Positions 2,126-11,696 of a stretch of DNA of 11,696 nt are shown here, in pieces. The number at the start of each line of letters is the position of its first letter. Position 1 is the stretch's first letter. The DNA lies in IMG/VR virus record IMGVR_UViG_2617270952_000003. One strand, 5' to 3'. The notes beneath the pieces are model-generated. The model was not told where the DNA came from and ran no database searches. It saw only the letters and a list, made by a program, of their open reading frames with translations. Both the position numbers and the translations under genes were made by a program. The DNA comes from a virus (taxonomy: Duplodnaviria > Heunggongvirae > Uroviricota > Caudoviricetes).

Positions 2126-2401
2126 ATGAATAGGGTCATTGAGAGCGCGAGCGACGCGGTTCCGTATCAGGAGTTTGCGCGTCTTATTGGTAAAACCCCT
2201 GCTGCTGTCAAAGGGATGATTGAGAAAGGCAAACTACCGATAGTTGAGATGACTGATCCGCAGTCTACAAGTGGGAGAGCAGGGGAATACTGGGTATATC
2301 TGCCAGCATGGAACAAAGGCATGAAGATGGCCTATGACAGTCGCCCTAAAGAAATTCGGGATGGTTGGTTGATGTGGTTGGGATTAGGTGAACCAGCATA
2401 A
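2126..2401 (+). CDS. cox: Cox-like excisionase/transcriptional regulator (91 aa)
   Basis: First rightward gene, divergent from C. Length matches P2 Cox (91 aa). Position and orientation are as in P2. Confidence 0.7.
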   Translation: MNRVIESASDAVPYQEFARLIGKTPAAVKGMIEKGKLPIVEMTDPQSTSGRAGEYWVYLPAWNKGMKMAYDSRPKEIRDGWLMWLGLGEPA

Positions 2402-2411
2402 GGAGCCAGAA

Positions 2412-2582
2412 ATGAAAGAGCCACGTTGTATAGCTCAGTTACTGCGTAACGAAAGTCCACGCCCGATGAAGTTCAACATCACTCATGGTAAAGGGCGTAA
2501 AGGCATCATCATCCGCACTCGCAAGCCTGGATTTATTGCTATGGCTAAACGCTTTATGAAATCCCGAGGGATATCGTTATGA
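2412..2582 (+). CDS. Small early-region ORF (56 aa), P2 orf78-like by position
   Basis: ATG at 2412 is preceded by AGGAG with a 6-nt spacer. Its stop overlaps the start of B (ATGA at 2579-2582). Basic small protein. Confidence 0.5.
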   Translation: MKEPRCIAQLLRNESPRPMKFNITHGKGRKGIIIRTRKPGFIAMAKRFMKSRGISL

Positions 2583-3079
2583 CGGTTATGACTCTTGCAT
2601 TAGTTCAAAAACAACCTGCAGCTCTACGCGTCGTTATAGGAAAGCATCTTGCGGAACCTCGCTGGCACGATACCTGTGATTTTTATAATCAGATGATGGA
2701 GCGTGACCGCTTGACTGTCTGTTTTCATGCTCGGTTAAAACAGCGTCACGCAGTAATGCGCTTTGAAGAAATGAATGATGTCGACCGCGAACGTCTGGCT
2801 TGTGCTATCGATGAGCTGCGCGCTGCTTTTTCAAAACGTCGTCAGGTTGGCGCAAGTGAATCTGCATATATTAGTTTTCTAACGGTGGGTCAGCGCCGCT
2901 CTTTATTTCTACACGCGGGATTGAGTGAGGTCGAGTTCAATCAGCCTTACTGGCGCATTGACGAAGATGCTTGTTATTGGCGAGAGAAACTATTCCGCGC
3001 TTTGCGTGAGCTTTTTGGGTTATTTGAACACGCGCCAACGATATTAACCTCGGTAAAGCCTGAGCAGTATTTACATTAA
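2579..3079 (+). CDS. B: Replication accessory protein, P2 B-like (166 aa)
   Basis: Same length as P2 B (166 aa) and same position between cox/orf78 and A. Translationally coupled to the upstream ORF. Confidence 0.6.
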   Translation: MTVMTLALVQKQPAALRVVIGKHLAEPRWHDTCDFYNQMMERDRLTVCFHARLKQRHAVMRFEEMNDVDRERLACAIDELRAAFSKRRQVGASESAYISFLTVGQRRSLFLHAGLSEVEFNQPYWRIDEDACYWREKLFRALRELFGLFEHAPTILTSVKPEQYLH

Positions 3080-3145
3080 TTAATCTGGATTCGTTTTATT
3101 ACACGCCTTACTGCGTGGGGATTCCTTTTGTCTGGAGATAGGCAA

Positions 3146-3364
3146 ATGCATAAACAAAATAAAGTGCCGACGTGTGTGCTCTCGGTACATCTGGCGCAAG
3201 CGTTGCGCGATGCGCAGCTCGATACCGCGACCCGTTTATCCTCTCATTTTGATCGCCTAATTGCGCACATCAGTAAGTTAGAACTCAACCGCACCGAGAT
3301 CATCGAGCTATTGGGGCAAGAGTCCGAAAAATTGCACAACTCAATTTTTCATTGTGCTTGCTAA
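3146..3364 (+). CDS. Small early-region hypothetical protein (72 aa)
   Basis: ATG at 3146 with GGAG upstream. Lies in the P2 orf80-83 interval. Confidence 0.45.
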   Translation: MHKQNKVPTCVLSVHLAQALRDAQLDTATRLSSHFDRLIAHISKLELNRTEIIELLGQESEKLHNSIFHCAC

Positions 3365-3386
3365 TCAATTTTAGAAGGAGACAAAA

Positions 3387-3662
3387 ATGAGTATCCGTAT
3401 CGAGATAAATCATCAGTATGTAGTTACAAGCGATCGCTACCAGTTCATTTTGCAGGAAAAGAAAGTGGCGACTGCTGGAAAAAATAAAGGTAGCGAATGG
3501 CTTGATACTGTCGGGTATTACCCGACGATTCAAAAACTGATTTCTGGTCTGGTGCTACATGACCTTTTAAATGGCGGTGCTGATAGTTTTGCGGCGTTGG
3601 GTGAGCAGGTCGAGCAGTTGGGACTGCAATGTCAGACCGCGTTTTGTGCTGATGGCCGTTGA
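3387..3662 (+). CDS. Early-region hypothetical protein (91 aa)
   Basis: Strong ribosome-binding site (GAAGGAGACAAAAATG). Its stop overlaps the A start. P2 orf82/83-like by position. Confidence 0.55.
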   Translation: MSIRIEINHQYVVTSDRYQFILQEKKVATAGKNKGSEWLDTVGYYPTIQKLISGLVLHDLLNGGADSFAALGEQVEQLGLQCQTAFCADGR

Positions 3663-5943
3663 GACTCGGGGGCGTATTGCCCCCTCGCTAGCCCTGCCAA
3701 TATCTAAGCGCACCGGCGATACTTTCGTTGGTGCTTATCCCTGGAATGCTCCCCGCGCTGCCATTGGCCGTGACAGACCCCTTACACGTGCCGAATTCCG
3801 TCAGGTGCAAGGTGTTTTATACCGGATTGACCGCCTGCCTTTCTTTCTTAAGACGTTGTTTACTTCCCGTTATAACTTCATTCGTCGCACAAAGAGCCCG
3901 CCCGGGGCGCTCTATTTCCTGAAAAACACCTTTGAGCGGAAGCTGTTGCCGCGTCTTGAGCGCGTTAACGAGCTGTGCGGGATGAATGAATCTGCGTCGA
4001 TTGGTTTCTTGTCTGAGCGTGACGAATATGCGCGCTTGCCTGATATGAATGACAAAGAGCTGAAAAAATTTGCGGCCAGAATTGCCGCGCAGCTCTGGCG
4101 TAAATACGAGGAACTCAGCGACGAATGGGCTGAGGCATTCGGCGGTAAAGAGACCCTTTTCACCGATGAGGCGCAGGTGCACATATATGGTCAGGTGGCT
4201 GGTGTTGCACGCGCGTTCAACTTAACCCCGCTCTACTGGAAAAAATACCGTAAGGGTCAGATGACGATCCGCATGGCGTTTTCCGCTATTTCCCGTCTGA
4301 TAAAAGATGATTGGTGGGTTAACCAGCTCAAGGCGCAGCGTATGCGCTGGCGCGAGGCGCTGCTTATCGCTGCCGGTGAAGTCAACAAAGACCGTTCACC
4401 TTACGCCAGCAAAATGGCGATCCGCGAGGTTCACTCGCGCCGGCTGGCTAATCTCGAATACCTGAAATCCTGTGAGCTGGAAAACAAAGTTACCGGCGAA
4501 CGTATCGACCTCATCAGTAAAGTCATGGGGAGTATTTCAAACCCTGAAATACGCCGTATGGAGCTGATGAACACCATTGCCGGAATTGAACGCTATGCGG
4601 CCAGCGTTGGTGATGTGGGAATGTTTATCACGCTGACCACGCCGTCGAAGTATCACCCGACCCGACAGGTCGGCAAAGGTGACAGCAAAACGGTGCAGCT
4701 CAATCACGGCTGGAACGAAACCGCATTCACCCCTAAAAACGGCCAGCGCTATCTGTGCCGAATCTGGAGCCTGATGCGTACCGCTTTCAAAGATAACGAT
4801 TTGGAAGTGTATGGGATGCGCGTTGTCGAGCCGCACCACGACGGCACGCCACACTGGCATATGATGCTTTTTTGCAAACTCAGTCAGCGTAAAGCTATCA
4901 ACGAAATTATGCGTCGTTATGCCCTCAAAGAGGACGGACACGAAAAGGGCGCGGCAAAACAGCGCTTTGAGTCGCGTCACCTTAATCAGGGGGGCGCGGC
5001 GGGTTATATCGCCAAATACATTGCCAAAAATATCGACGGCTACGCGCTTGACGGTCAGCTCGATCACGATACCGGCAAATCTCTGAAAGATACGGCCGCA
5101 GCCGTAACCGCATGGGCGTCTACATGGCGTATCCCTCAGTTTAAACCGATTGGCCTCCCGACAATGGGCGCTTACCGCGAACTGCGTAAGCTGCCGCGCG
5201 GGGTGAGTATCGCCAGCGAGTTTGACGACCGTGTCGAGGCCGTCCGGGCTGCTGCAGATGAGGGGGAATTTGACCTGTACATCAGCGCGCAGGGTGGGGC
5301 AAACATGCCGCGTGATGCTCAGGCGGTCAGGGTCGCCCGTAAGGTGACGGATGAGGTAAACGAATACGAGGAGGATATCGAGAAAGTGGTCGGTATTTAT
5401 GCCCCTCATCTTGGGGTGAGCCGCGTACATGTAACCCGTACAGCGGAATGGCGCATAGTTCCAAAGGTTTTGGCCGTTGAGCCTTTGACCTTAAAAAGCG
5501 GCTCTGCCGCGCCTCGGAGTCCTGTCAATAACTGTGGAAAGCTTGCCGACGGTGGCGATCCAGTTATGACACCTACACCGTCTGAGCAAGCCGCAGCGGT
5601 GTTAAATCTGATTGAGGCCGGGGTTATCGGCTGGAATGAGCCAGACGTCATGAAGGTTCTTAACGGCGCGTTAAAAGCTGGCGCACCTCGCAATAATCGC
5701 CAGCAAAGAAGCAATGCGCCACTCAAAACGAGCGAGCAAGCTCCATCAGCCAGGATGACAAAACCAGAAAGGGATCGCGTGGCGAAAATTCGTTTCGATT
5801 TGGCTCAGGAGGGCATTACCCCGGAACGGTGGGCGCTCGAAGCGCTGGCGCGTGGGGCAACGGTGATTTATGGCGATAAAAAAATCAAATACGCGGCTGC
5901 TGATGAGTGGCCGGGATTCTCAATTCAAGAGGAGCAGAATTAA
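3652..5943 (+). CDS. A: Rolling-circle replication initiator endonuclease, P2 gpA-like (about 763 aa)
   Basis: HUH-type motif PHWHMM at nt 4849-4866 and twin-tyrosine motif GYIAKYIAKN at nt 5002-5031, both hallmarks of the phiX174-A / P2-A initiator superfamily. Start placed at the internal Met MAVETRG (3652), giving a length close to P2 A. Confidence 0.85.
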   Translation: MAVETRGRIAPSLALPISKRTGDTFVGAYPWNAPRAAIGRDRPLTRAEFRQVQGVLYRIDRLPFFLKTLFTSRYNFIRRTKSPPGALYFLKNTFERKLLPRLERVNELCGMNESASIGFLSERDEYARLPDMNDKELKKFAARIAAQLWRKYEELSDEWAEAFGGKETLFTDEAQVHIYGQVAGVARAFNLTPLYWKKYRKGQMTIRMAFSAISRLIKDDWWVNQLKAQRMRWREALLIAAGEVNKDRSPYASKMAIREVHSRRLANLEYLKSCELENKVTGERIDLISKVMGSISNPEIRRMELMNTIAGIERYAASVGDVGMFITLTTPSKYHPTRQVGKGDSKTVQLNHGWNETAFTPKNGQRYLCRIWSLMRTAFKDNDLEVYGMRVVEPHHDGTPHWHMMLFCKLSQRKAINEIMRRYALKEDGHEKGAAKQRFESRHLNQGGAAGYIAKYIAKNIDGYALDGQLDHDTGKSLKDTAAAVTAWASTWRIPQFKPIGLPTMGAYRELRKLPRGVSIASEFDDRVEAVRAAADEGEFDLYISAQGGANMPRDAQAVRVARKVTDEVNEYEEDIEKVVGIYAPHLGVSRVHVTRTAEWRIVPKVLAVEPLTLKSGSAAPRSPVNNCGKLADGGDPVMTPTPSEQAAAVLNLIEAGVIGWNEPDVMKVLNGALKAGAPRNNRQQRSNAPLKTSEQAPSARMTKPERDRVAKIRFDLAQEGITPERWALEALARGATVIYGDKKIKYAAADEWPGFSIQEEQN

Positions 5944-6407
5944 TGAGCAAAATCCATGAGTTAAAAATTGCACCTGAGTATTTTAACTCTGTGATATCTC
6001 AGGAAAAACGTGCTGAATTTCGTCTCAATGACCGCGATTATTCTAGCGGTGATATTCTCGGGTTGCATGAATGGGAACCGGTAAACAGATATACCGGGAA
6101 ACGTGTATCAGTGAGGGTGACAAACGTTACGGATTTATCTGAATGGGCGGAAAATTATGTGATGCTGAGTTTTCAGTTAATGATGCCAGATGTCCAGTGC
6201 GGTATGTCCCTAATGAACTGGAAAGAGTTAAGCGAGAAGGGGCTTGTTTTCAGAGTTAATCACGAAATTCTACACCCGTTAGGGCTGGCTATTAGATATG
6301 AAACACTTAACAGCGTTTCTGGTAGGGCTTACATCGCTGATGATGGTGTCTGGCAATATTCCGACAAGTTGGTCGCAGATGCTAAAAAAAATGGGTGGTT
6401 AAAATGA
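5943..6407 (+). CDS. DUF3850 / ASCH-like protein (154 aa), P2 orf91-like by position
   Basis: Start overlaps the A stop (TAATG) with a GAGGAG ribosome-binding site. N-terminus MSKIHELKIAPEYFNSVISQEKRAEFRLNDRDY resembles the DUF3850 (ASCH-like) fold family found downstream of A in P2-like phages. Confidence 0.6.
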   Translation: MSKIHELKIAPEYFNSVISQEKRAEFRLNDRDYSSGDILGLHEWEPVNRYTGKRVSVRVTNVTDLSEWAENYVMLSFQLMMPDVQCGMSLMNWKELSEKGLVFRVNHEILHPLGLAIRYETLNSVSGRAYIADDGVWQYSDKLVADAKKNGWLK

Positions 6408-6643
6408 GTCATATGCGAATGATGCCAGTGCCGCCGATACATTCAACGCAAAACATTAAGCTGATGGCCGTCGTACATCGCCTGCAACAAATTATGATTA
6501 ACGAGAATCTGACCCCTGACGAACTGGTCGGGTGTGCCGGTGTCGTCCGGGATAATCACCGCAAATACAGCGATATCAGCAATCCGAAAATTGAGGCGTT
6601 TCGGCCACCAAATATGGCAAAGCCACCACCGCGTCGACCATAG
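6404..6643 (+). CDS. Hypothetical small protein (79 aa)
   Basis: ATGA overlap with the preceding ORF's stop and GGTGG upstream. No recognisable motifs. Occupies the position where P2 carries tin/old. Confidence 0.35.
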   Translation: MSHMRMMPVPPIHSTQNIKLMAVVHRLQQIMINENLTPDELVGCAGVVRDNHRKYSDISNPKIEAFRPPNMAKPPPRRP

Positions 6644-6925
6644 CAAACGCCGCCGGTGCTGAAACTTGTTTTCAGTGCCAGCGGTGTTGAGCAACGAGCC
6701 CCGCGAGACGTTAGCCTGCACCGTAGAGACCACCCCCAACCGGCACGATTAAAGTCGGTTTTATTATGCAATTTTCCCACAATTTCCCGGTTTTTTAGCC
6801 GTGCATGCAACAGGTGCATTTTTTTGCATACGTTGGGGATGCCTGTTCTGGCCGCGCGCCGCCAGAGCAGGCGCGGATCCAGAGTGGTCATGCAACTGCA
6901 TTAAAAACGACCCATAAAGCGGGCA

Positions 6926-6944
6926 GGCGAGGCGGGGTAAGCAT
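6926..6944. other. Putative cos site (19-nt cohesive-end sequence)
   Basis: GGCGAGGCGGGGTAAGCAT matches the P2/186/P4 cohesive end as recalled (GGCGAGGCGGGGAAAGCAC) at 17 of 19 positions. It sits in a GC-rich non-coding stretch (6644-6943). Confidence 0.5.
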
Positions 6945-7015
6945 TGCGCGCGCCTGTCAAAGATATTAAGATTGTCTCAAAATCGATTGATTTTATTGAA
7001 CTAATGGAGCTAGGA

Positions 7016-8572
7016 ATGATTAAGGGTATAGGTCTTCAAAACTTCAGGAGCTTTGTCAACAAAACGTTTATTGATTTAAAACCAATTACAGTATTTGTTG
7101 GTAAGAACAGCAGTGGTAAAAGTTCCCTATTGCGCACATTTCCTTTACTTCGTCAATCTGTAGAAGAAAATACTACTGGCCCAATACTATGGTATGGGAG
7201 ATATGTGGATTTTGGCGATTTTACAGATGTACTTTCCCGAAACTCTGAAAAAAAAGAAATTACGTTTAGTTTTTCACTCTCAATTCCGCCAGAGGTTTCA
7301 CAAAGATATACATATTATCGTTCTACTGATTTAGCAAAGCAACCAACAGATATTGAAGCAGAGTTAACTGTTTACTCTAAAGATAAAAAAACAAAAACGA
7401 AAACGATTAAGCTTATATTGGCTGATTTAACAATATTTATTTCAATGGATGAGAGTAGTAATGTTAAATTACTCATTGAATCAGATGATAAAACAATAGA
7501 GCGTGATGGGATAATAGCTAAAAATCTTGGGCAGTTCATACCAAATCTAATTTTGAAGGGTAAGGAAGACAGTCCTCCTCCAAGCACATCATTCTATTTG
7601 AGACATTCTAGGCATGACAGGGCGTTAGAATTGTCATTTATTGATTCAGCGGCGAAATATATAAAGAAATATTTCCATACTAAATCTGATATAAATCAAG
7701 TGACAGAGGCATTCAAAAGAATTGGCTTTATACCCAAAGCGTACGCTAGTAAATTAGTTGCTTTTCTATTTAAGGAACAAAAAGTTTTTAGTAGAAACTT
7801 TGAATTTCAACATGATGAAATAATGAATGAGTTATATCCATTTATAATTGGATGGAATATTAATAATCTTATAGATATAATAAATACATCCTTGTCAGAT
7901 TCATTCAGAAATGTAAAGTACATAGCTCCACTGCGTGCTACATCAGAAAGATTTTATCGTTTTCAAGATTTACAGGTTAATGAGATAGATCATACTGGTT
8001 CCAATCTTGCAATGCTTTTGAATTCATTAAGACCGGCTGATAAATCAAAATTTGAAGATTGGACAAAGTTAAATTTTGATTTCATTATCAAGGTTGAACA
8101 AAGTGGCTCTCACTTTGCAATTTTAATAAACACCGGTGAAAATAGTGAGAACTATAATGTTAGTGATATGGGGTTTGGTTATTCTCAGGTTTTGCCGATA
8201 GTTACAGCCATTTGGCTTGAGACAGAACGTCGTGCTACCACGGTTAGAAAACCTATAACATTTATCATTGAGCAGCCAGAATTGCATTTACATCCGTCAT
8301 ATCAGCATAATTTAGCAAGTATTTTTGCAAAAGTAGTAACTAAAGCAAAAGAAAATAATGTAGATTTGAAGATAATTTTTGAGACACATAGCCAGACCAT
8401 GATTGAAGCACTTGGTGAATATATTGAGGAAAATGAAAGTCTTTCACAGGATGATATTTCAATACTGGTATTTGAAAAAGATGATAAGCAGCAGACTATA
8501 GTTAAGAAATCTTATTTTGACGAGAATGGTTTCCTAAAAAATTGGCCGGTTGGCTTTTTCTCGGGTAAGTAG
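7016..8572 (+). CDS. OLD-family / AAA_21-type ABC ATPase (518 aa), candidate defense ATPase (PARIS AriA-like or Septu PtuA-like architecture)
   Basis: Walker A GKNSSGKSS at nt 7101-7127. Walker B / D-loop FIIEQPELHLHP at nt 8261-8296. Signature-like SDMGFGYSQ and H-loop-like FETHS. Lys/Thr-rich insert (KDKKTKTKTIK) between the ATPase lobes. ATG at 7016 is preceded by GGAG. The gene is AT-rich relative to the phage backbone. Confidence 0.8.
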   Translation: MIKGIGLQNFRSFVNKTFIDLKPITVFVGKNSSGKSSLLRTFPLLRQSVEENTTGPILWYGRYVDFGDFTDVLSRNSEKKEITFSFSLSIPPEVSQRYTYYRSTDLAKQPTDIEAELTVYSKDKKTKTKTIKLILADLTIFISMDESSNVKLLIESDDKTIERDGIIAKNLGQFIPNLILKGKEDSPPPSTSFYLRHSRHDRALELSFIDSAAKYIKKYFHTKSDINQVTEAFKRIGFIPKAYASKLVAFLFKEQKVFSRNFEFQHDEIMNELYPFIIGWNINNLIDIINTSLSDSFRNVKYIAPLRATSERFYRFQDLQVNEIDHTGSNLAMLLNSLRPADKSKFEDWTKLNFDFIIKVEQSGSHFAILINTGENSENYNVSDMGFGYSQVLPIVTAIWLETERRATTVRKPITFIIEQPELHLHPSYQHNLASIFAKVVTKAKENNVDLKIIFETHSQTMIEALGEYIEENESLSQDDISILVFEKDDKQQTIVKKSYFDENGFLKNWPVGFFSGK

Positions 8573-8574
8573 TT

Positions 8575-9687
8575 ATGTTGATTAATATCGAAAATGCGAC
8601 ACCTGAGAAGGTGCTAAATAACTCATTTGCCATAGCGGTTGAAAATATACTTCGGGCATTCGCTGAACAAAAACACTTGGTTATAGGGGCAAGGGTTTTT
8701 TTTAAAACTATTATCAATGATCAAAGCGGGCTTTATAGCCTTTCATCAAAAAGTTACGCGCAAGAGGCTTTGTCGGGTCTAACAGAGTACTATGCTATCT
8801 TGGATCAGGTCTCATTTTATGTATCTGTCGACTTTAATATTAGTGATAAATCATTTAAATGGGTTCAGATCGGTGAATCTTTTAAATTTGTTTGTGGTCC
8901 ATTGTATTTTAATGACTCGGCACAATTGCAAAAAACGAAAATAGTATGTGAAAATCCTTTGGATTCTGATTTTTTTAAGGTTATAGCGGCTCATTATGCC
9001 GAAGGTATTAACTTATCTCGCTGCGAAATGGGTTTTATCGCTCTAAATGGCGGTGGGGGCAGTACTAAGGATATATTCGAGCGTGCAATTCAAAATAATG
9101 AGATAGTTTTTTGTATTGTGGATAATGACAAAAAACATCCTGGAGCCCCATTCGGAGGTACTTGCTCACATTTTTTGGGCTCACAAATTACTCGCTCAGG
9201 TTTCGTGGAGATTTTAGATGTACATGAAATAGAATCTCTAGTTCCTTTATCGACAATTGAAGATGTATTAAGAAGTCAAAGTCAATTGCAACAAAAAGAA
9301 AAATCTCTCATTTTCTTTAAGCATCTTTGCTCCGTAGATGAATCAGTAAAATTTTATATTGACCATAAAAAAGGTTTTGATTTTAAAACAGCCCTTGAAC
9401 TCGATCGAAAACATGGTGCATATTGGCGTCCGATATTAAAGAAGCTTGATATAAAATATGATTGTGAGTATATCGAATCAAAACGTTGTAGCTGCAACGC
9501 TGCTTGTGTAAGTTATGATGGTTTTGGAGAGAATTTGCTCAGCAATACATTGAAATATATACAAAAGGGAAGTTTAAAAAAATATAATCCTCACCTAACA
9601 CCAGTGCTTTCTGATAAATGGTATAAGTTAGGTAAGAATTTCTTTAGTTGGAGTTGTGGTCCATATAAAAAAGCAAGGGTTGGTTAA
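8575..9687 (+). CDS. TOPRIM-like (DUF4435-like) putative nuclease partner of the ATPase (370 aa)
   Basis: Start is 2 nt after the ATPase stop, suggesting translational coupling. TOPRIM-like motif 1 IVCENPLDSD (Glu at residue 126, nt 8950-8952) and DxD motif CIVDNDKK (nt 9121-9129) about 57 residues later. Gly-rich loop NGGGGS between them. C-terminal Cys cluster CEYIESKRCSCNAAC. The assignment is from motifs only. Confidence 0.55.
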   Translation: MLINIENATPEKVLNNSFAIAVENILRAFAEQKHLVIGARVFFKTIINDQSGLYSLSSKSYAQEALSGLTEYYAILDQVSFYVSVDFNISDKSFKWVQIGESFKFVCGPLYFNDSAQLQKTKIVCENPLDSDFFKVIAAHYAEGINLSRCEMGFIALNGGGGSTKDIFERAIQNNEIVFCIVDNDKKHPGAPFGGTCSHFLGSQITRSGFVEILDVHEIESLVPLSTIEDVLRSQSQLQQKEKSLIFFKHLCSVDESVKFYIDHKKGFDFKTALELDRKHGAYWRPILKKLDIKYDCEYIESKRCSCNAACVSYDGFGENLLSNTLKYIQKGSLKKYNPHLTPVLSDKWYKLGKNFFSWSCGPYKKARVG

Positions 9688-9690
9688 ATT

Positions 9691-9727
9691 ATCACAGCCC
9701 CGATAAAGTGGGCTGTGATGTTATTAT
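9691..9727 (+). terminator. Rho-independent terminator of the cargo operon
   Basis: Inverted repeat ATCACAGCCC / GGGCTGTGAT (9691-9700 and 9710-9719) with a 9-nt loop, followed by a T-rich run (GTTATTATCTG), just after the partner gene stop. Confidence 0.5.
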
Positions 9728-9782
9728 CTGTGGTTCTTGAGTTACAGGGCTGAATATAATGTTGAGATGTTTATTTTGAAAA

Positions 9783-10232
9783 TCAAAGTGAATATTTTTT
9801 AAATCTTATAACTTCCATTTCTAACCAGTTGTTTAGTTCTTTGAACCGTTCCTGTAAAGGAGTTAACTCATTTCGGACAAACACTTGTGCAGCTTTTACA
9901 ACATCACCAAAACCGCCAACATTGTTAGGCATAATTCCCATCATTTGTGGTGGTACCCTATGAGCACTCAACAAATCTTCTGCACTAACCTTTTTGATAT
10001 TGAAAAAATCATCTTTCGTGGCGACTTCACTCAACGGCACAATCTTGATGCCATCCGGTTTGCCGTTGGGCGCGTAGAAAAACAAGTTTTTGAAATTCCC
10101 GAGTCCTTTCGAGTCACGCATCGCGTTGCGGAGCGACTCGACGTCGGTACACAGCCTCAACGGGAGCGGCTTCACGACGGGCTTAGAGCTTGAGGTTAAG
10201 GTTTCTGATGTGGAGTATGAAAGCGAGGAAGT
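9783..10232 (-). pseudogene. Q: Portal protein gene fragment (3' portion only), P2 Q-like, truncated
   Basis: Minus-strand frame encodes ...LLSAHRVPPQMMGIMPNNVGGFGDVVKAAQVFVRNELTPLQERF..., which looks like the conserved C-terminal region of PBSX/P2-family portals. Only about 130-150 codons remain (P2 Q is about 344 aa). The frame is closed by a stop at 10233-10235 and ogr occupies the upstream space. Confidence 0.6.
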
Positions 10233-10316
10233 TTAACGGCGTGTGTTGTTTATGTGTTTGTTTTATAAGTAAAAATTAGTAAAATTAACACATTGAATAC
10301 GCCGGAGACCCTCATC

Positions 10317-10538
10317 ATGTTTCATTGTCCGAAATGCCATCATGCCGCCCACGCCCGCACGAGTCGCTATTTTACTGATACCACAAAAGAGCGGTATCAC
10401 CAGTGCACAAACATTAACTGCAGCTGCACGTTTGTGACCACTGAAACAGTCGAGCGTTTTATCGTGTCGCCGGGGGAAGTAGTACCCGCGCCGCCGCATC
10501 CGACATCATCAGGTCAGCAACAAATTCACTGGATGTGA
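10317..10538 (+). CDS. ogr: Ogr-family zinc-finger late-gene transcriptional activator (73 aa)
   Basis: MFHCPKCHHAAHARTSRYFTDTTKERYHQCTNINCSCTF carries the C-x2-C...C-x4-C zinc-finger signature of P2 Ogr / P4 Delta. GGAGA ribosome-binding site 8 nt upstream. Confidence 0.9.
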   Translation: MFHCPKCHHAAHARTSRYFTDTTKERYHQCTNINCSCTFVTTETVERFIVSPGEVVPAPPHPTSSGQQQIHWM

Positions 10539-10546
10539 CAAACGAG

Positions 10547-10572
10547 AAAGCCCCGCGAATGCGGGGCTTTTT
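10547..10572 (+). terminator. Rho-independent terminator downstream of ogr
   Basis: AAAGCCCCGC-GAAT-GCGGGGCTTT hairpin with a GC-rich stem, followed by TTTTT. Confidence 0.8.
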
Positions 10573-10844
10573 GCAACTTTTAGATCAGTTATGTTAAGTA
10601 CATTTCCGTCGGCAAAGTGCCAGGAGCGGGTTCTAGAGAGTGACTAACGTTAGTTATATGTGTAAAATTCCTTAAAAATAAGAAGGATATATATCCATGA
10701 CAGCAATTGCATATTGGATTAACTGAGAATCAATTGAGAAATTTTGGGGGGGGCAAAAAATAAACTAGCTAATTAAATTTTTATAAATAACGAATATAAG
10801 ACTGCAAGCCATTTAACAAAAGTTTATAAATAAAGGAGTCAGTT

Positions 10845-11696
10845 TTGAACAATATCCCCATATCTACTCAATGGACTTTAGACGCTACGGGTGAAGTTGG
10901 ACGCTCATCAGTAAATTCTGTTTATATGATTATATGTCCTGCGACAGGCTCGAAAGGATCTGGTTTTTTAATAGATAATGGGTTAATAGTAACGAACGAG
11001 CATGTTATCACTGGATGCTCTACAAATCAGATTTTCGCAATTTCAGCTTATGGACAGAAGATTCCAATTTCTCAAAAATGGATAGATTCTGATCGCGATT
11101 TAGCTGTGCTGAGACCTGCCATTACCCAGACTGGTGGGCTAAGTATTGTTAAGGATAATGATCTTAAAGTTGGTGAATCAGTAACAACTTGGGGATACCC
11201 ATTAGGATACAACGGTCCTGCACCGTTACTATCCGTTGGTTATCTAGCAGGATTTAACTCATACCAAACCGCCAAGGGACAAAAAAAACATCTAGTGGTA
11301 AATGGGGCATTTAACTCAGGAAATTCTGGTGGAGCTCTTTTAAAAGCTTCAGATAATAAAGTAATAGGTATTGTAGTGAGTAAGCATGCTCCTATCAGTC
11401 AATACCATCAATCAGCTATTGAAGCTTTGTCTGAAAATATGAGTGGCGTCACCTATACCGCTACTAATGACGCTGGAGAAACTAAAAGTTTTGTAGAATC
11501 TCAAATTGTAGCAGAATTATTGATTCATATGAGAAGTCTAACTCAAGTTATGATTGGAGAAGCAATTGCAGCAGAGGAATTACTTTCGATGCTTAGCGAA
11601 ATTGACTTGAGTCCACCACAATCTATGTCAAGAAATGCCTTATGTCATTGCGGGAGTGGAAAACGCTTCAAAGAATGTCATGGAAAGATATCCTAG
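10845..11696 (+). CDS. Trypsin-like (S1/Trypsin_2) serine protease with C-terminal SEC-C zinc-binding motif (283 aa)
   Basis: Catalytic triad contexts TNEHV (His), DRDLAVL (Asp) and GNSGGAL (Ser). C-terminal CHCGSGKRFKECHG is a SEC-C motif. TTG start with AAGGAG 7 nt upstream. AT-rich. The ORF ends exactly at the window edge (TAG at 11694-11696). Confidence 0.7.
   Translation: MNNIPISTQWTLDATGEVGRSSVNSVYMIICPATGSKGSGFLIDNGLIVTNEHVITGCSTNQIFAISAYGQKIPISQKWIDSDRDLAVLRPAITQTGGLSIVKDNDLKVGESVTTWGYPLGYNGPAPLLSVGYLAGFNSYQTAKGQKKHLVVNGAFNSGNSGGALLKASDNKVIGIVVSKHAPISQYHQSAIEALSENMSGVTYTATNDAGETKSFVESQIVAELLIHMRSLTQVMIGEAIAAEELLSMLSEIDLSPPQSMSRNALCHCGSGKRFKECHGKIS

Follow-up and report, generated by a model that had tools for sequence, protein, structure and literature searches.

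Some of the most widespread anti-phage effectors are modules that pair an ABC-type ATPase with a TOPRIM nuclease (Old, Gabija, retron Eco8 and PARIS), two of which were recently found to cut tRNA. GajA and Vibrio OLD nick DNA. RecR, DnaG and topoisomerase IA combine a TOPRIM domain with a zinc module. PARIS, also termed 'class 4 OLD', consists of the ATPase AriA and the DUF4435 TOPRIM nuclease AriB, and is operationally defined by the DUF4435 (PF14491) partner (PMC9122126). The catalytic Glu of AriB is E26, and the nuclease is first sequestered by the PARIS system and then released (PMC12409363). In the OLD protein of Burkholderia (BpOLD), the two-metal catalytic set comprises E400, E404, a Gly, D455/D457, T506/E508 and K562, with E508 serving as a metal-B ligand and K562 as the catalytic Lys, and the TOPRIM glycine motif follows strand β2 (PMC6755086). 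The effectors of the Menshen system (NsnA-NsnB-NsnC) are highly polymorphic proteins in which an N-terminal α/β adaptor domain precedes the nuclease domain, and the DUF3696 tails of NsnB are predicted to sandwich the N-terminal domain of NsnC (PMC12065111).

The window analyzed here is a stretch of 11,696 nucleotides of Caudoviricetes DNA (IMG/VR record IMGVR_UViG_2617270952_000003), and contains a gene pair in which only 2 nt separate the stop codon of an ATPase gene from the ATG of the gene for its partner protein (Table 1). The mechanically called ORF of the ATPase opens at TTG 6944, and the RefSeq start is the ATG further downstream given in Table 1. RefSeq names this protein 'DUF3696 domain-containing protein', and Pfam analysis revealed matches to AAA_15 (4e-27), AAA_21 (8e-19) and DUF3696 (3.8e-7; 30.7 bits against a cut-off of 22). 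The sequence contains a Walker A motif (GKNSSGKS), a Walker B motif (IIEQPELHLHP), an H-loop (ETHS) and a DUF3696 tail ending in NWPVGFFSGK. Its best matches in PADLOC were defence ATPases, namely NsnB (4.9e-55, over ORF residues 25-539), PDC-M55A (7.5e-46), HEC-03B (2e-37) and AriA (7e-31). The Walker B motif carries a natural E-Q instead of D-E, and the ATP chemistry may therefore differ from that of OLD and AriA.

Every one of the eight lineages inspected (E. coli, Pectobacterium, Providencia, Morganella, Vibrio, Desulfuromonadales, Thiothrix and Geitlerinema) has an NsnB-like ATPase gene directly upstream of the partner gene, and in the Pseudomonas Pf-like phage 62-2 an ATPase gene likewise occupies this position. 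This bears out the status of partner given to the protein in a preliminary description made from the sequence. A constant association of the gene with an ATPase of the NsnB/DUF3696-tail clade, through co-transcription or at least direct adjacency, is strongly supported. A related-locus search with a closer-relative alignment returned four loci. In the window, scans for promoters and terminators flanking the operon gave results at chance level.

The partner protein is identical to WP_000906719. It matched no sequence model in Pfam, NCBIfam or PHROGs, sequence searches of the PDB with two profiles of its family gave matches at chance level only, and family members are labelled in RefSeq solely as 'hypothetical protein'. 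No characterization of the ATPase-partner pair was found in the literature on the RefSeq accessions, PDC-M55 and the DefensePredictor systems. The family is extensive, with 1856 profile matches at 50% clustering and at least 1400 sequence clusters (50% identity), distributed from Enterobacterales to cyanobacteria. The preliminary description had called the architecture unusual, which does not hold within the family, as the best 150 of the 1856 profile matches are nearly all 340-396 aa in length and match end-to-end. The translation placed its individual features where it had put them: E126 within IVCENPLDSD (codon 8950-8952), the Gly-rich loop NGGGGS, the DxD motif, the Cys-containing run and a second Cys within WSCGPY (residues 359-364), with about 120 residues N-terminal of the Glu and about 185 C-terminal of the DxD.

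Residue conservation was analyzed in an alignment of 131 representatives, with 20-43% identity to the window protein and a mean column identity of 24%. The only invariant columns are E126, G161, D185 and E220. D183 is present in 130 of the 131 sequences and D130 in 127, the other four having Glu; the remaining glycines of the loop, G159 and G160, are present in 128 and 118, respectively, and K265 in 126 (96%). D130, D183, D263, K265 and G267 are each conserved in at least 93% of the relatives. Judged from the aligned sequences, this pattern of conservation is far beyond chance.

An AF2 model of the partner protein (pLDDT 88.8, pTM 0.87) displays the four-stranded parallel sheet between helices that is typical of TOPRIM domains, with strands β1 (122-125), β2 (155-158), β3 (178-183) and β4 (209-214). 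The invariant Glu lies immediately after β1, the Gly motif follows β2, and the DxD motif ends β3. Foldseek comparison of the predicted fold gave OLD, AriB, retron-TOPRIM and GajA proteins, all TOPRIM nucleases of the OLD type, as the best matches. A TOPRIM-like core with E126, D183 and D185 as the putative catalytic set, as first suggested, is supported by both the fold and the alignment, in which these residues are invariant or nearly so. The Gly-rich loop had been listed among the additions to this core, and is instead the canonical TOPRIM glycine motif.

Structure comparison revealed that the TOPRIM domain together with the helical C-terminal region resembles solved OLD proteins. Profile-profile alignment with the class-1 C-terminal region of P2 Old using hhalign gave P values of 0.0099 and 0.0056, compared to 0.11, 0.54, 0.12 and 0.27 for the controls, with a shared register at E, E+4, G and DxD. 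In the sequence and the AF2 secondary structure, E218-x-E220 lies at the start of the first C-terminal helix and D130 at Glu+4, in the order and secondary-structure position found in BpOLD, while K265, within D263-x-K-x-G, is the sole near-invariant Lys C-terminal of the TOPRIM domain among the 131 relatives. The proposal that E126, D130, G159-161, D183/D185, E218/E220 and K265 reproduce the two-metal set of BpOLD by order and spacing is strongly supported at the level of sequence. Within this set, we infer that E218/E220 and K265 are equivalent to T506/E508 and K562 from their order, spacing, secondary-structure position and conservation. The Pfam model for OLD-like TOPRIM domains, PF20469, did not match the window protein at E 0.01, 19 family members at E 10 or 10 distant members at E 1. 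A middle part composed of a TOPRIM domain and then a helical domain, the layout of OLD-family nucleases, is strongly supported. The region beyond the core had been regarded as an additional sensor or substrate-recognition module; its first 80 residues or so past the TOPRIM sheet look OLD-type helical and include the invariant E220 and the highly conserved K265, and much of this "C-terminal extension" is probably an OLD-type helical domain carrying catalytic residues.

Table 1 Features of the ATPase-partner locus (window coordinates)
Feature	Position	Strand	Basis
Low-GC cargo island, P2 gpA-gpQ hotspot, between the gpA/DUF3850 genes and the portal gene	6905..9780	.	GC, flanking genes, P2 map
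ABC-type ATPase, 518 aa from ATG 7016	7016..8572	+	Pfam, PADLOC, RefSeq start
Partner gene, 370 aa, candidate OLD-type TOPRIM nuclease	8575..9687	+	translation
N-terminal α/β (Rossmann-like) domain, residues 1-120; putative ATPase-docking/adaptor domain	8575..8934	+	
TOPRIM domain, residues 121-215	8935..9219	+	secondary structure, conservation, profile-profile alignment
E126-N-P-L-D130, TOPRIM Glu (metal A) and acidic residue at +4, BpOLD E400/E404 pattern	8950..8964	+	conservation
G159-G160-G161, TOPRIM glycine motif after β2	9049..9057	+	conservation
D183-N184-D185, DxD motif	9121..9129	+	conservation
Helical C-terminal domain, residues 216-370: E218-I-E220, D263-H-K265-x-G267, W284, W349, W359	9220..9684	+	
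Cys-rich loop CEYIESKRCSCNAAC, residues 297-311; family Cys positions 299 (Tyr here), 305 and 311; fourth Cys, C361, at 9655-9657	9463..9507	+	frequencies, co-occurrence

The N-terminal extension is a genuine separate domain, as had been proposed. It is found throughout the family and contains no conserved acidic catalytic residues. Possible roles include sensing, substrate reading and docking of the ATPase. No specific structural relative of residues 1-120 was present among the structure matches, and the domain is not recognizably PIN-like. An origin by duplication and degeneration of the TOPRIM domain was considered and rejected, with hhalign P values of 0.12 for this comparison and 0.27 for an alignment with the OLD C-terminal region.

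On this evidence, the partner protein is probably the nuclease component of a phage-carried split-OLD module, made up of two genes, for anti-phage defence by exclusion or abortive infection. A divergent PARIS system, in which the ATPase would sense anti-restriction proteins such as Ocr and free an AriB-type tRNase, appears unlikely. The pair does share with PARIS an AAA_15/AAA_21 ATPase adjacent to a nuclease, but DUF4435 did not match the window protein or 29 family members even at E 1 to 10, and the PADLOC AriB model did not match the window protein and matched only one of the 131 relatives (3.9e-4). PARIS proper was rejected because the window protein matches neither DUF4435 nor AriB. The ATPase, with its DUF3696 tail, is also nearer to NsnB than to AriA, and the N-terminal domain of the partner spans 120 residues, compared to a catalytic Glu at position 26 in AriB.

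A reduced Menshen system, in which the NsnB ATPase is retained, NsnC is swapped for a TOPRIM nuclease, and NsnA is lost or acts in trans, is similarly improbable. It would account for NsnB being the best PADLOC match over the whole ATPase and for the DUF3696 tail, and the two-part logic of the effector, an adaptor followed by a nuclease, is as in Menshen (PMC12065111). No DUF262 gene that could represent NsnA (ParB/DUF262) was found in the window or in the related loci examined, and the partner does not display the inactive-PIN N-terminal domain and C-terminal RNase-type effector by which NsnC is recognized. A complete Menshen system was therefore rejected.

The C-terminal Cys cluster, previously described as possibly metal-binding, is real at the level of the family, in which C299 is present in 127, C305 in 122, C311 in 121 and C361 in 114 of the 131 sequences, but C297 and C307, which had been counted as part of it, are not conserved. 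C180, C299, C305, C311 and C361 occur together in 91 of the 131, and C361 is replaced by a hydrophobic residue in 17, in 16 of these by F, L, I, V or Y. The pLDDT across the loop is 61-66 in the AF2 model. The window protein, which has the non-conserved C297 and C307 nearby, is alone among the 131 in having Tyr at position 299. The loop is deleted from P0005, P0028 and the homologue in the Pf phage, and all three keep every catalytic residue, which rules out a cluster essential to the family. As the loop is mutated here and deleted in several lineages, core activity cannot depend on it.

Together with a deletion of about 21 kb in the window prophage, from which the portal gene to gpD are missing, Y299 suggests that the window copy might not be fully functional. 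Decay is also evident in other lineages: frameshifts occur in Morganella, and the Thiothrix ATPase carries an IS insertion. We nevertheless regard a decaying or inactive allele of the nuclease family as quite improbable, since both ORFs are intact with all catalytic residues present, and Y299 is the standard E. coli allele, shared by cluster P0001 (99% identical, 134 member sequences). In addition, the window DNA has matches of ≥99% in 35 complete genomes, and the retention of every catalytic residue in the loop-less lineages argues that the loop is not required.

The pair is located in a low-GC island (34%, versus 49% for the prophage backbone) at the gpA-gpQ hotspot of a P2-like prophage. 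In P2 itself this hotspot carries tin and old, and the catalogue of hotspot genes by Rousset et al. lists WP_000906719 with the label 'hypothetical' (PMC9122126). Among 5426 complete E. coli genomes, 53 carry the pair. The pair also occurs outside prophages, and its spread as cargo of prophage accessory regions is strongly supported. The least probable alternative, that the partner functions in the DNA metabolism of the phage or host (replication, recombination, repair) and not in defence, would fit the combination of TOPRIM domain and Cys cluster reminiscent of RecR, DnaG and Topo IA, the position just downstream of the replication gene gpA, and the annotation of the Pf-phage ATPase as a Rad50-like repair ATPase, but the best structural matches are OLD-type nucleases and not RecR or DnaG, several lineages do without the Cys loop, the pair is rare low-GC accessory cargo that is also found outside prophages, and the site is occupied in P2 by non-essential exclusion genes.

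In the favoured interpretation as a split-OLD anti-phage module, an oligomer of the ATPase would keep the nuclease inactive and sense a phage cue, and ATP binding or hydrolysis would then release or activate the nuclease. The active nuclease would cut nucleic acid by two-metal catalysis, followed by arrest of phage growth. In analogy to the complex predicted for NsnB and NsnC in Menshen, the Rossmann-like domain may be the handle held by the DUF3696 tails of the ATPase, while the Cys loop may be an optional metal-stabilized knuckle that aids substrate binding. The preliminary description was right that the choice between tRNA and DNA as the target cannot be read from the sequence. tRNA would be a reasonable guess because AriB and P2 Old both cut tRNA anticodon arms, and DNA nicking is equally possible. 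A more specific proposal, which we offer tentatively, is that the pair represents a further, unnamed split-OLD immune lineage, in which a hydrolysis-attenuated, NsnB-like ATPase with an E-Q Walker B motif holds the TOPRIM nuclease via the adaptor domain, a Cys3-4 (Zn or Fe-S) knuckle tunes the choice of substrate, and neither the trigger nor the nucleic-acid target is shared with PARIS, Gabija or P2 Old.

With the OLD-type assignment, a cargo found repeatedly in the P2-like prophages of E. coli and the Pf-like phages of Pseudomonas acquires a function that can be tested. The assignment also connects a TOPRIM effector to a Menshen-type ATPase bearing a DUF3696 tail, which helps to show effector swapping by defence ATPases, and the family offers a natural series of Cys loops (intact, mutated and deleted) for probing the accessory modules of TOPRIM nucleases. 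No new principle is revealed on present evidence.

Among known systems, the nearest PADLOC entry is PDC-M55 (A+B), a predicted candidate system. The PDC-M55B model matches the TOPRIM domain and helical part in 100 of the 131 relatives (best 6.4e-13). The window protein is matched weakly and over residues 123-281 only (2.1e-4), and these models have no curated thresholds. Single members among the 131 scanned match the AriB, GajA, ATPase-Toprim and RT-Toprim models of PADLOC. HEC-01, which gave no defence in published tests, likewise combines an ABC ATPase with a TOPRIM protein, but its TOPRIM model does not match the partner. The HEC-03 ATPase shares the C-terminal region of the ATPase described here, and its partner is a PIN nuclease.

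NsnB of Menshen is the protein most similar to the ATPase, with the helical DUF3696 tail common to both, and NsnC resembles the partner in having an N-terminal α/β domain followed by a nuclease domain. The effector described here is of the TOPRIM type, and not the BECR or other RNase domain described for NsnC. Compared to PARIS, the partner additionally carries an N-terminal domain of 120 residues and the Cys loop, and the ATPase belongs to the NsnB/DUF3696-tail clade with its E-Q Walker B motif, with NsnB and PDC-M55A outscoring AriA. The DUF3696 tail is absent from the domain strings of AriA in the tables of Rousset et al. and present in this ATPase. OLD proteins carry the ATPase and TOPRIM domains fused in one polypeptide, whereas two genes are found here; they match PF20469 and have neither the N-terminal adaptor domain nor the Cys loop, while the opposite is true of the partner, in which the spacing from D185 to E220 is 35 residues, compared to 51 in BpOLD. 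Overall, the pair looks like a variant of the PARIS/OLD-type anti-phage systems, belonging to a large, unnamed family, and not a new kind of machine.

The protein encoded downstream of the ABC-type ATPase (the partner) is a TOPRIM protein of the OLD type, and its residue set of the two-metal kind is intact and strongly conserved. An AlphaFold2 model built with the family alignment (pLDDT 88.8, pTM 0.87), in which confidence is low only in the Cys loop (pLDDT 61–66) and at the last three residues, showed a three-part architecture (see table) with the TOPRIM landmarks in place: E126 lies past β1, the GGG past β2, and the DxD closes β3. Structural comparison ranked the C-terminal region of Burkholderia OLD first (6nk8, score 7.4, 162 residues aligned), followed by Thermus OLD (6p74, 6.4), AriB of PARIS (8v46_D, 6.3) and the retron Ec67 TOPRIM protein (9i2f, 5.9), with GajA seventh (8u7i, 5.3); the scores are moderate and the list is coherent. 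The same proteins led in Foldseek, weakly (E 0.025–0.09). Together with residue conservation, the predicted fold supports the earlier reading of the partner as a TOPRIM nuclease effector.

Close relatives of the partner (31) were gathered by a word-indexed search, and a profile run against 1.84 billion cluster representatives matched 1856 proteins at E ≤1e-3, 1411 at 1e-10 and 349 at 1e-30. Conservation was analyzed in 131 representatives with 20–43% identity to the window protein. Only E126, G161, D185 and E220 are invariant, while conservation of at least 87% was found for D130, G159, G160, C180, D183, P189, G194, T196, P224, D263, K265, G267, W284, C299, C305, C311, W349, G353, W359 and C361. 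Translation and an alignment check placed all the residues named in the preliminary description at the positions it gave. It had taken loss of E126, D183 or D185 among homologs as grounds for rejection; two of these are invariant and D183 is nearly so (at least 87%), and conservation therefore does not refute the TOPRIM reading.

In the active site of Burkholderia OLD (BpOLD), the metal A residues are E400, D455 and D457, and those of metal B are E404, T506 and E508, the last lying on the helical domain's first helix; the helical domain also supplies K562, and the invariant TOPRIM glycine is needed as well (Schiltz et al., PMC6755086). The partner family has counterparts in the same order, E126, D130 (E+4, like E400/E404), G159–161 and D183/D185, with an E-to-DxD spacing of 57 versus 55 residues. 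E218-x-E220 opens the first helix after β4, and K265 lies within an almost invariant D-x-K-x-G motif. From this correspondence in sequence, we infer E220 as the putative metal B ligand and K265 as the putative catalytic lysine. Alignment of the family C-terminal part with 115 P2 Old relatives by hhalign gave P 0.0099, and P 0.0056 for the TOPRIM segment alone, in register at E, E+4, G and DxD, versus P 0.11–0.54 in four control comparisons, suggesting a weak but specific profile link to OLD. The PADLOC model PDC-M55B was matched by 100 of the 131 members (best 6e-13; window protein 2e-4 over residues 123–281), and the AriB, GajA, ATPase-Toprim and RT-Toprim models were touched by single members. 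Searches of Pfam, NCBIfam, PHROGs and PDB sequences returned no match for the partner.

The preliminary description regarded the partner's architecture as unusual, a view borne out only in part. Nearly all of the best 150 of the 1856 profile matches are 340–396 aa long and align end to end, so the three parts are nothing peculiar to this gene but the norm of a large family. The Gly-rich loop is present, as the canonical TOPRIM glycine motif and not as an add-on. The first ~80 residues after the TOPRIM sheet, part of a region suggested to be an extra sensor, resemble an OLD-type helical domain with conserved catalytic candidates, and so probably belong to the enzyme. The N-terminal extension is a genuinely separate, family-specific domain (pLDDT 94.9), which hardly any member lacks (4% gaps), with conserved positions N24, K33, H34, E/Q71, F112 and D114 and no catalytic-looking acidic set. 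A duplicated TOPRIM origin for this domain was rejected by profile comparison (hhalign).

The Cys cluster is conserved at the family level as C299-x5-C305-x5-7-C311, plus C361 fifty residues on; C297 and C307, proposed earlier, are not conserved. Position 299 is Cys in 127 of 131 representatives and Tyr (window 9469–9471) in the E. coli allele, cluster P0001 (134 members) included. C361 is replaced by a hydrophobic residue in 17 members (F, L, I, V or Y in 16), two close relatives (P0005 and P0028) lack the loop altogether, and so does the homologue in Pseudomonas phage 62-2, which keeps every catalytic residue. Members can thus do without the Cys cluster; as an optional module, it is most simply read as a knuckle stabilised by a metal, either Zn or Fe-S.

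The partner is strictly coupled to the ATPase, which lies directly upstream at every locus examined, in E. coli, Pectobacterium, Providencia (chromosomal, outside prophage), Morganella, Vibrio, a Desulfuromonadales MAG, Thiothrix and the cyanobacterium Geitlerinema; no ParB/DUF262 gene was found beside the pair at any of the loci. The Morganella psychrotolerans copy (L009, 3436–6068) is decayed, with both genes frameshifted and broken into several ORFs, and in Thiothrix unzii (L002, 3338–6001) an IS element (HTH + DDE_3) splits the ATPase, leaving the partner intact. Both genes also occur in a Pf-like filamentous phage of P. aeruginosa, 62-2, adjoining repressor and excisionase genes, with a partner 27% identical and named 'putative OLD family nuclease' by the depositor. 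Its cassette spans 2399–5035 (L013, OR621022, Tubulavirales). Its presence in a Pf-like filamentous phage as well as a P2-like prophage shows that the cassette moves between temperate phages of unrelated types.

The ATPase matches Pfam AAA_15, AAA_21 and DUF3696 and, in order, the PADLOC models NsnB of Menshen (5e-55), PDC-M55A, HEC-03B and AriA. Its Walker A and H-loop are normal. Walker B (residues 416–427, IIEQPELHLHP) reads I-I-E-Q-P-E versus I-D-E-P-E in P2 Old, and six distant lineages share both the Glu-Gln and a C-terminal NWP-x-GFF tail. ABC ATPases lose hydrolysis when an E-to-Q substitution is engineered at that site. The natural, conserved E-Q suggests that the signal is ATP binding or slow turnover, not fast hydrolysis.

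Features of the window and predicted parts of the partner
Feature	Position	Strand	Remark
Integrase	584-1630	minus	
cox-region genes	within window		
Replication endonuclease gpA	3571-5943		
DUF3850/ASCH (PUA-like) gene	5907-6407	+	overlaps gpA end, precedes cassette
ABC-type ATPase gene	7016-8572	+	RefSeq start, ATG at 7016
Partner ORF	8575-9687	+	begins 2 nt past ATPase stop
Alpha/beta domain	residues 1-120		AlphaFold2 model
β-α-β-α-β-α-β, TOPRIM pattern	residues 122-214		AlphaFold2 model
Helical part	residues 216-360		AlphaFold2 model

In the window, which covers the left part of a P2-like E. coli prophage, a 34% GC island (~6905–9780) with two plus-strand genes interrupts a 49% GC backbone. 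Given gpA on one side and, in intact relatives, the gpQ portal gene as the next gene after the pair, the island occupies the cos-proximal gpA–gpQ slot, the site of tin and old in P2 and a described hotspot of anti-phage systems (Rousset et al., PMC9122126). The DUF3850/ASCH gene is the first element in many hotspot arrangements (Rousset et al. Table S5) and is followed by two 82-aa ORFs (6395–6904), one matching phrog_11386. Of 5426 complete E. coli genomes, 53 have the cassette, chromosomal in every case; as mobile low-GC cargo, the pair occurs in temperate phages of two unrelated types and in chromosomal islands.

Compared with intact prophages (e.g. NZ_AP021944), the window lacks ~21 kb, with a junction near 10145/10146 (window 9690–11696), and a 130-aa portal fragment (9783–10175, minus) directly adjoins the gpD/ogr prophage end and a trypsin-like peptidase gene. 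The junction was found in none of the collection's complete E. coli genomes, so the source is either a prophage remnant retaining defence cargo or an assembly artefact. The peptidase gene is a 283-aa ORF (10845–11696, +) whose product combines Trypsin_2 (1e-19) with a SEC-C metal-binding motif at its C-terminus. It falls within a second patch of low GC (38%), past ogr at the far prophage end, and may be a further accessory or defence gene.

In PARIS, the AriA hexamer sequesters AriB and frees it on sensing phage proteins (PMC12409363), and in the predicted Menshen complex two DUF3696 tails clamp the effector's N-terminal domain (PMC12065111). On that basis we propose a mechanism in which the ATPase would keep the nuclease inactive via the 1–120 domain, infection would cause the ATPase to free or activate it, and the nuclease would then cut a nucleic acid, aborting phage growth. 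The target may be tRNA, whose anticodon arms AriB and P2 Old cut, or DNA, which GajA and Vibrio OLD nick.

In its proposed working, the pair resembles a split OLD/PARIS system. It falls outside PARIS, the definition of which needs a DUF4435 partner. Menshen is ruled out, since NsnA is absent, the partner begins with a domain not recognisable as PIN-like, and the effector type differs. The Pfam OLD TOPRIM model does not pick up the partner, and the ATPase clade, N-terminal domain and Cys loop are described for none of the published OLD classes, 1–4 plus archaeal class 5 (PMC12796447). The sole relative in the databases is PDC-M55, a PADLOC candidate known as a prediction only (Payne et al. preprint). 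No new principle is evident; the family is large, unannotated and phage-borne, and the prediction is clear and testable.
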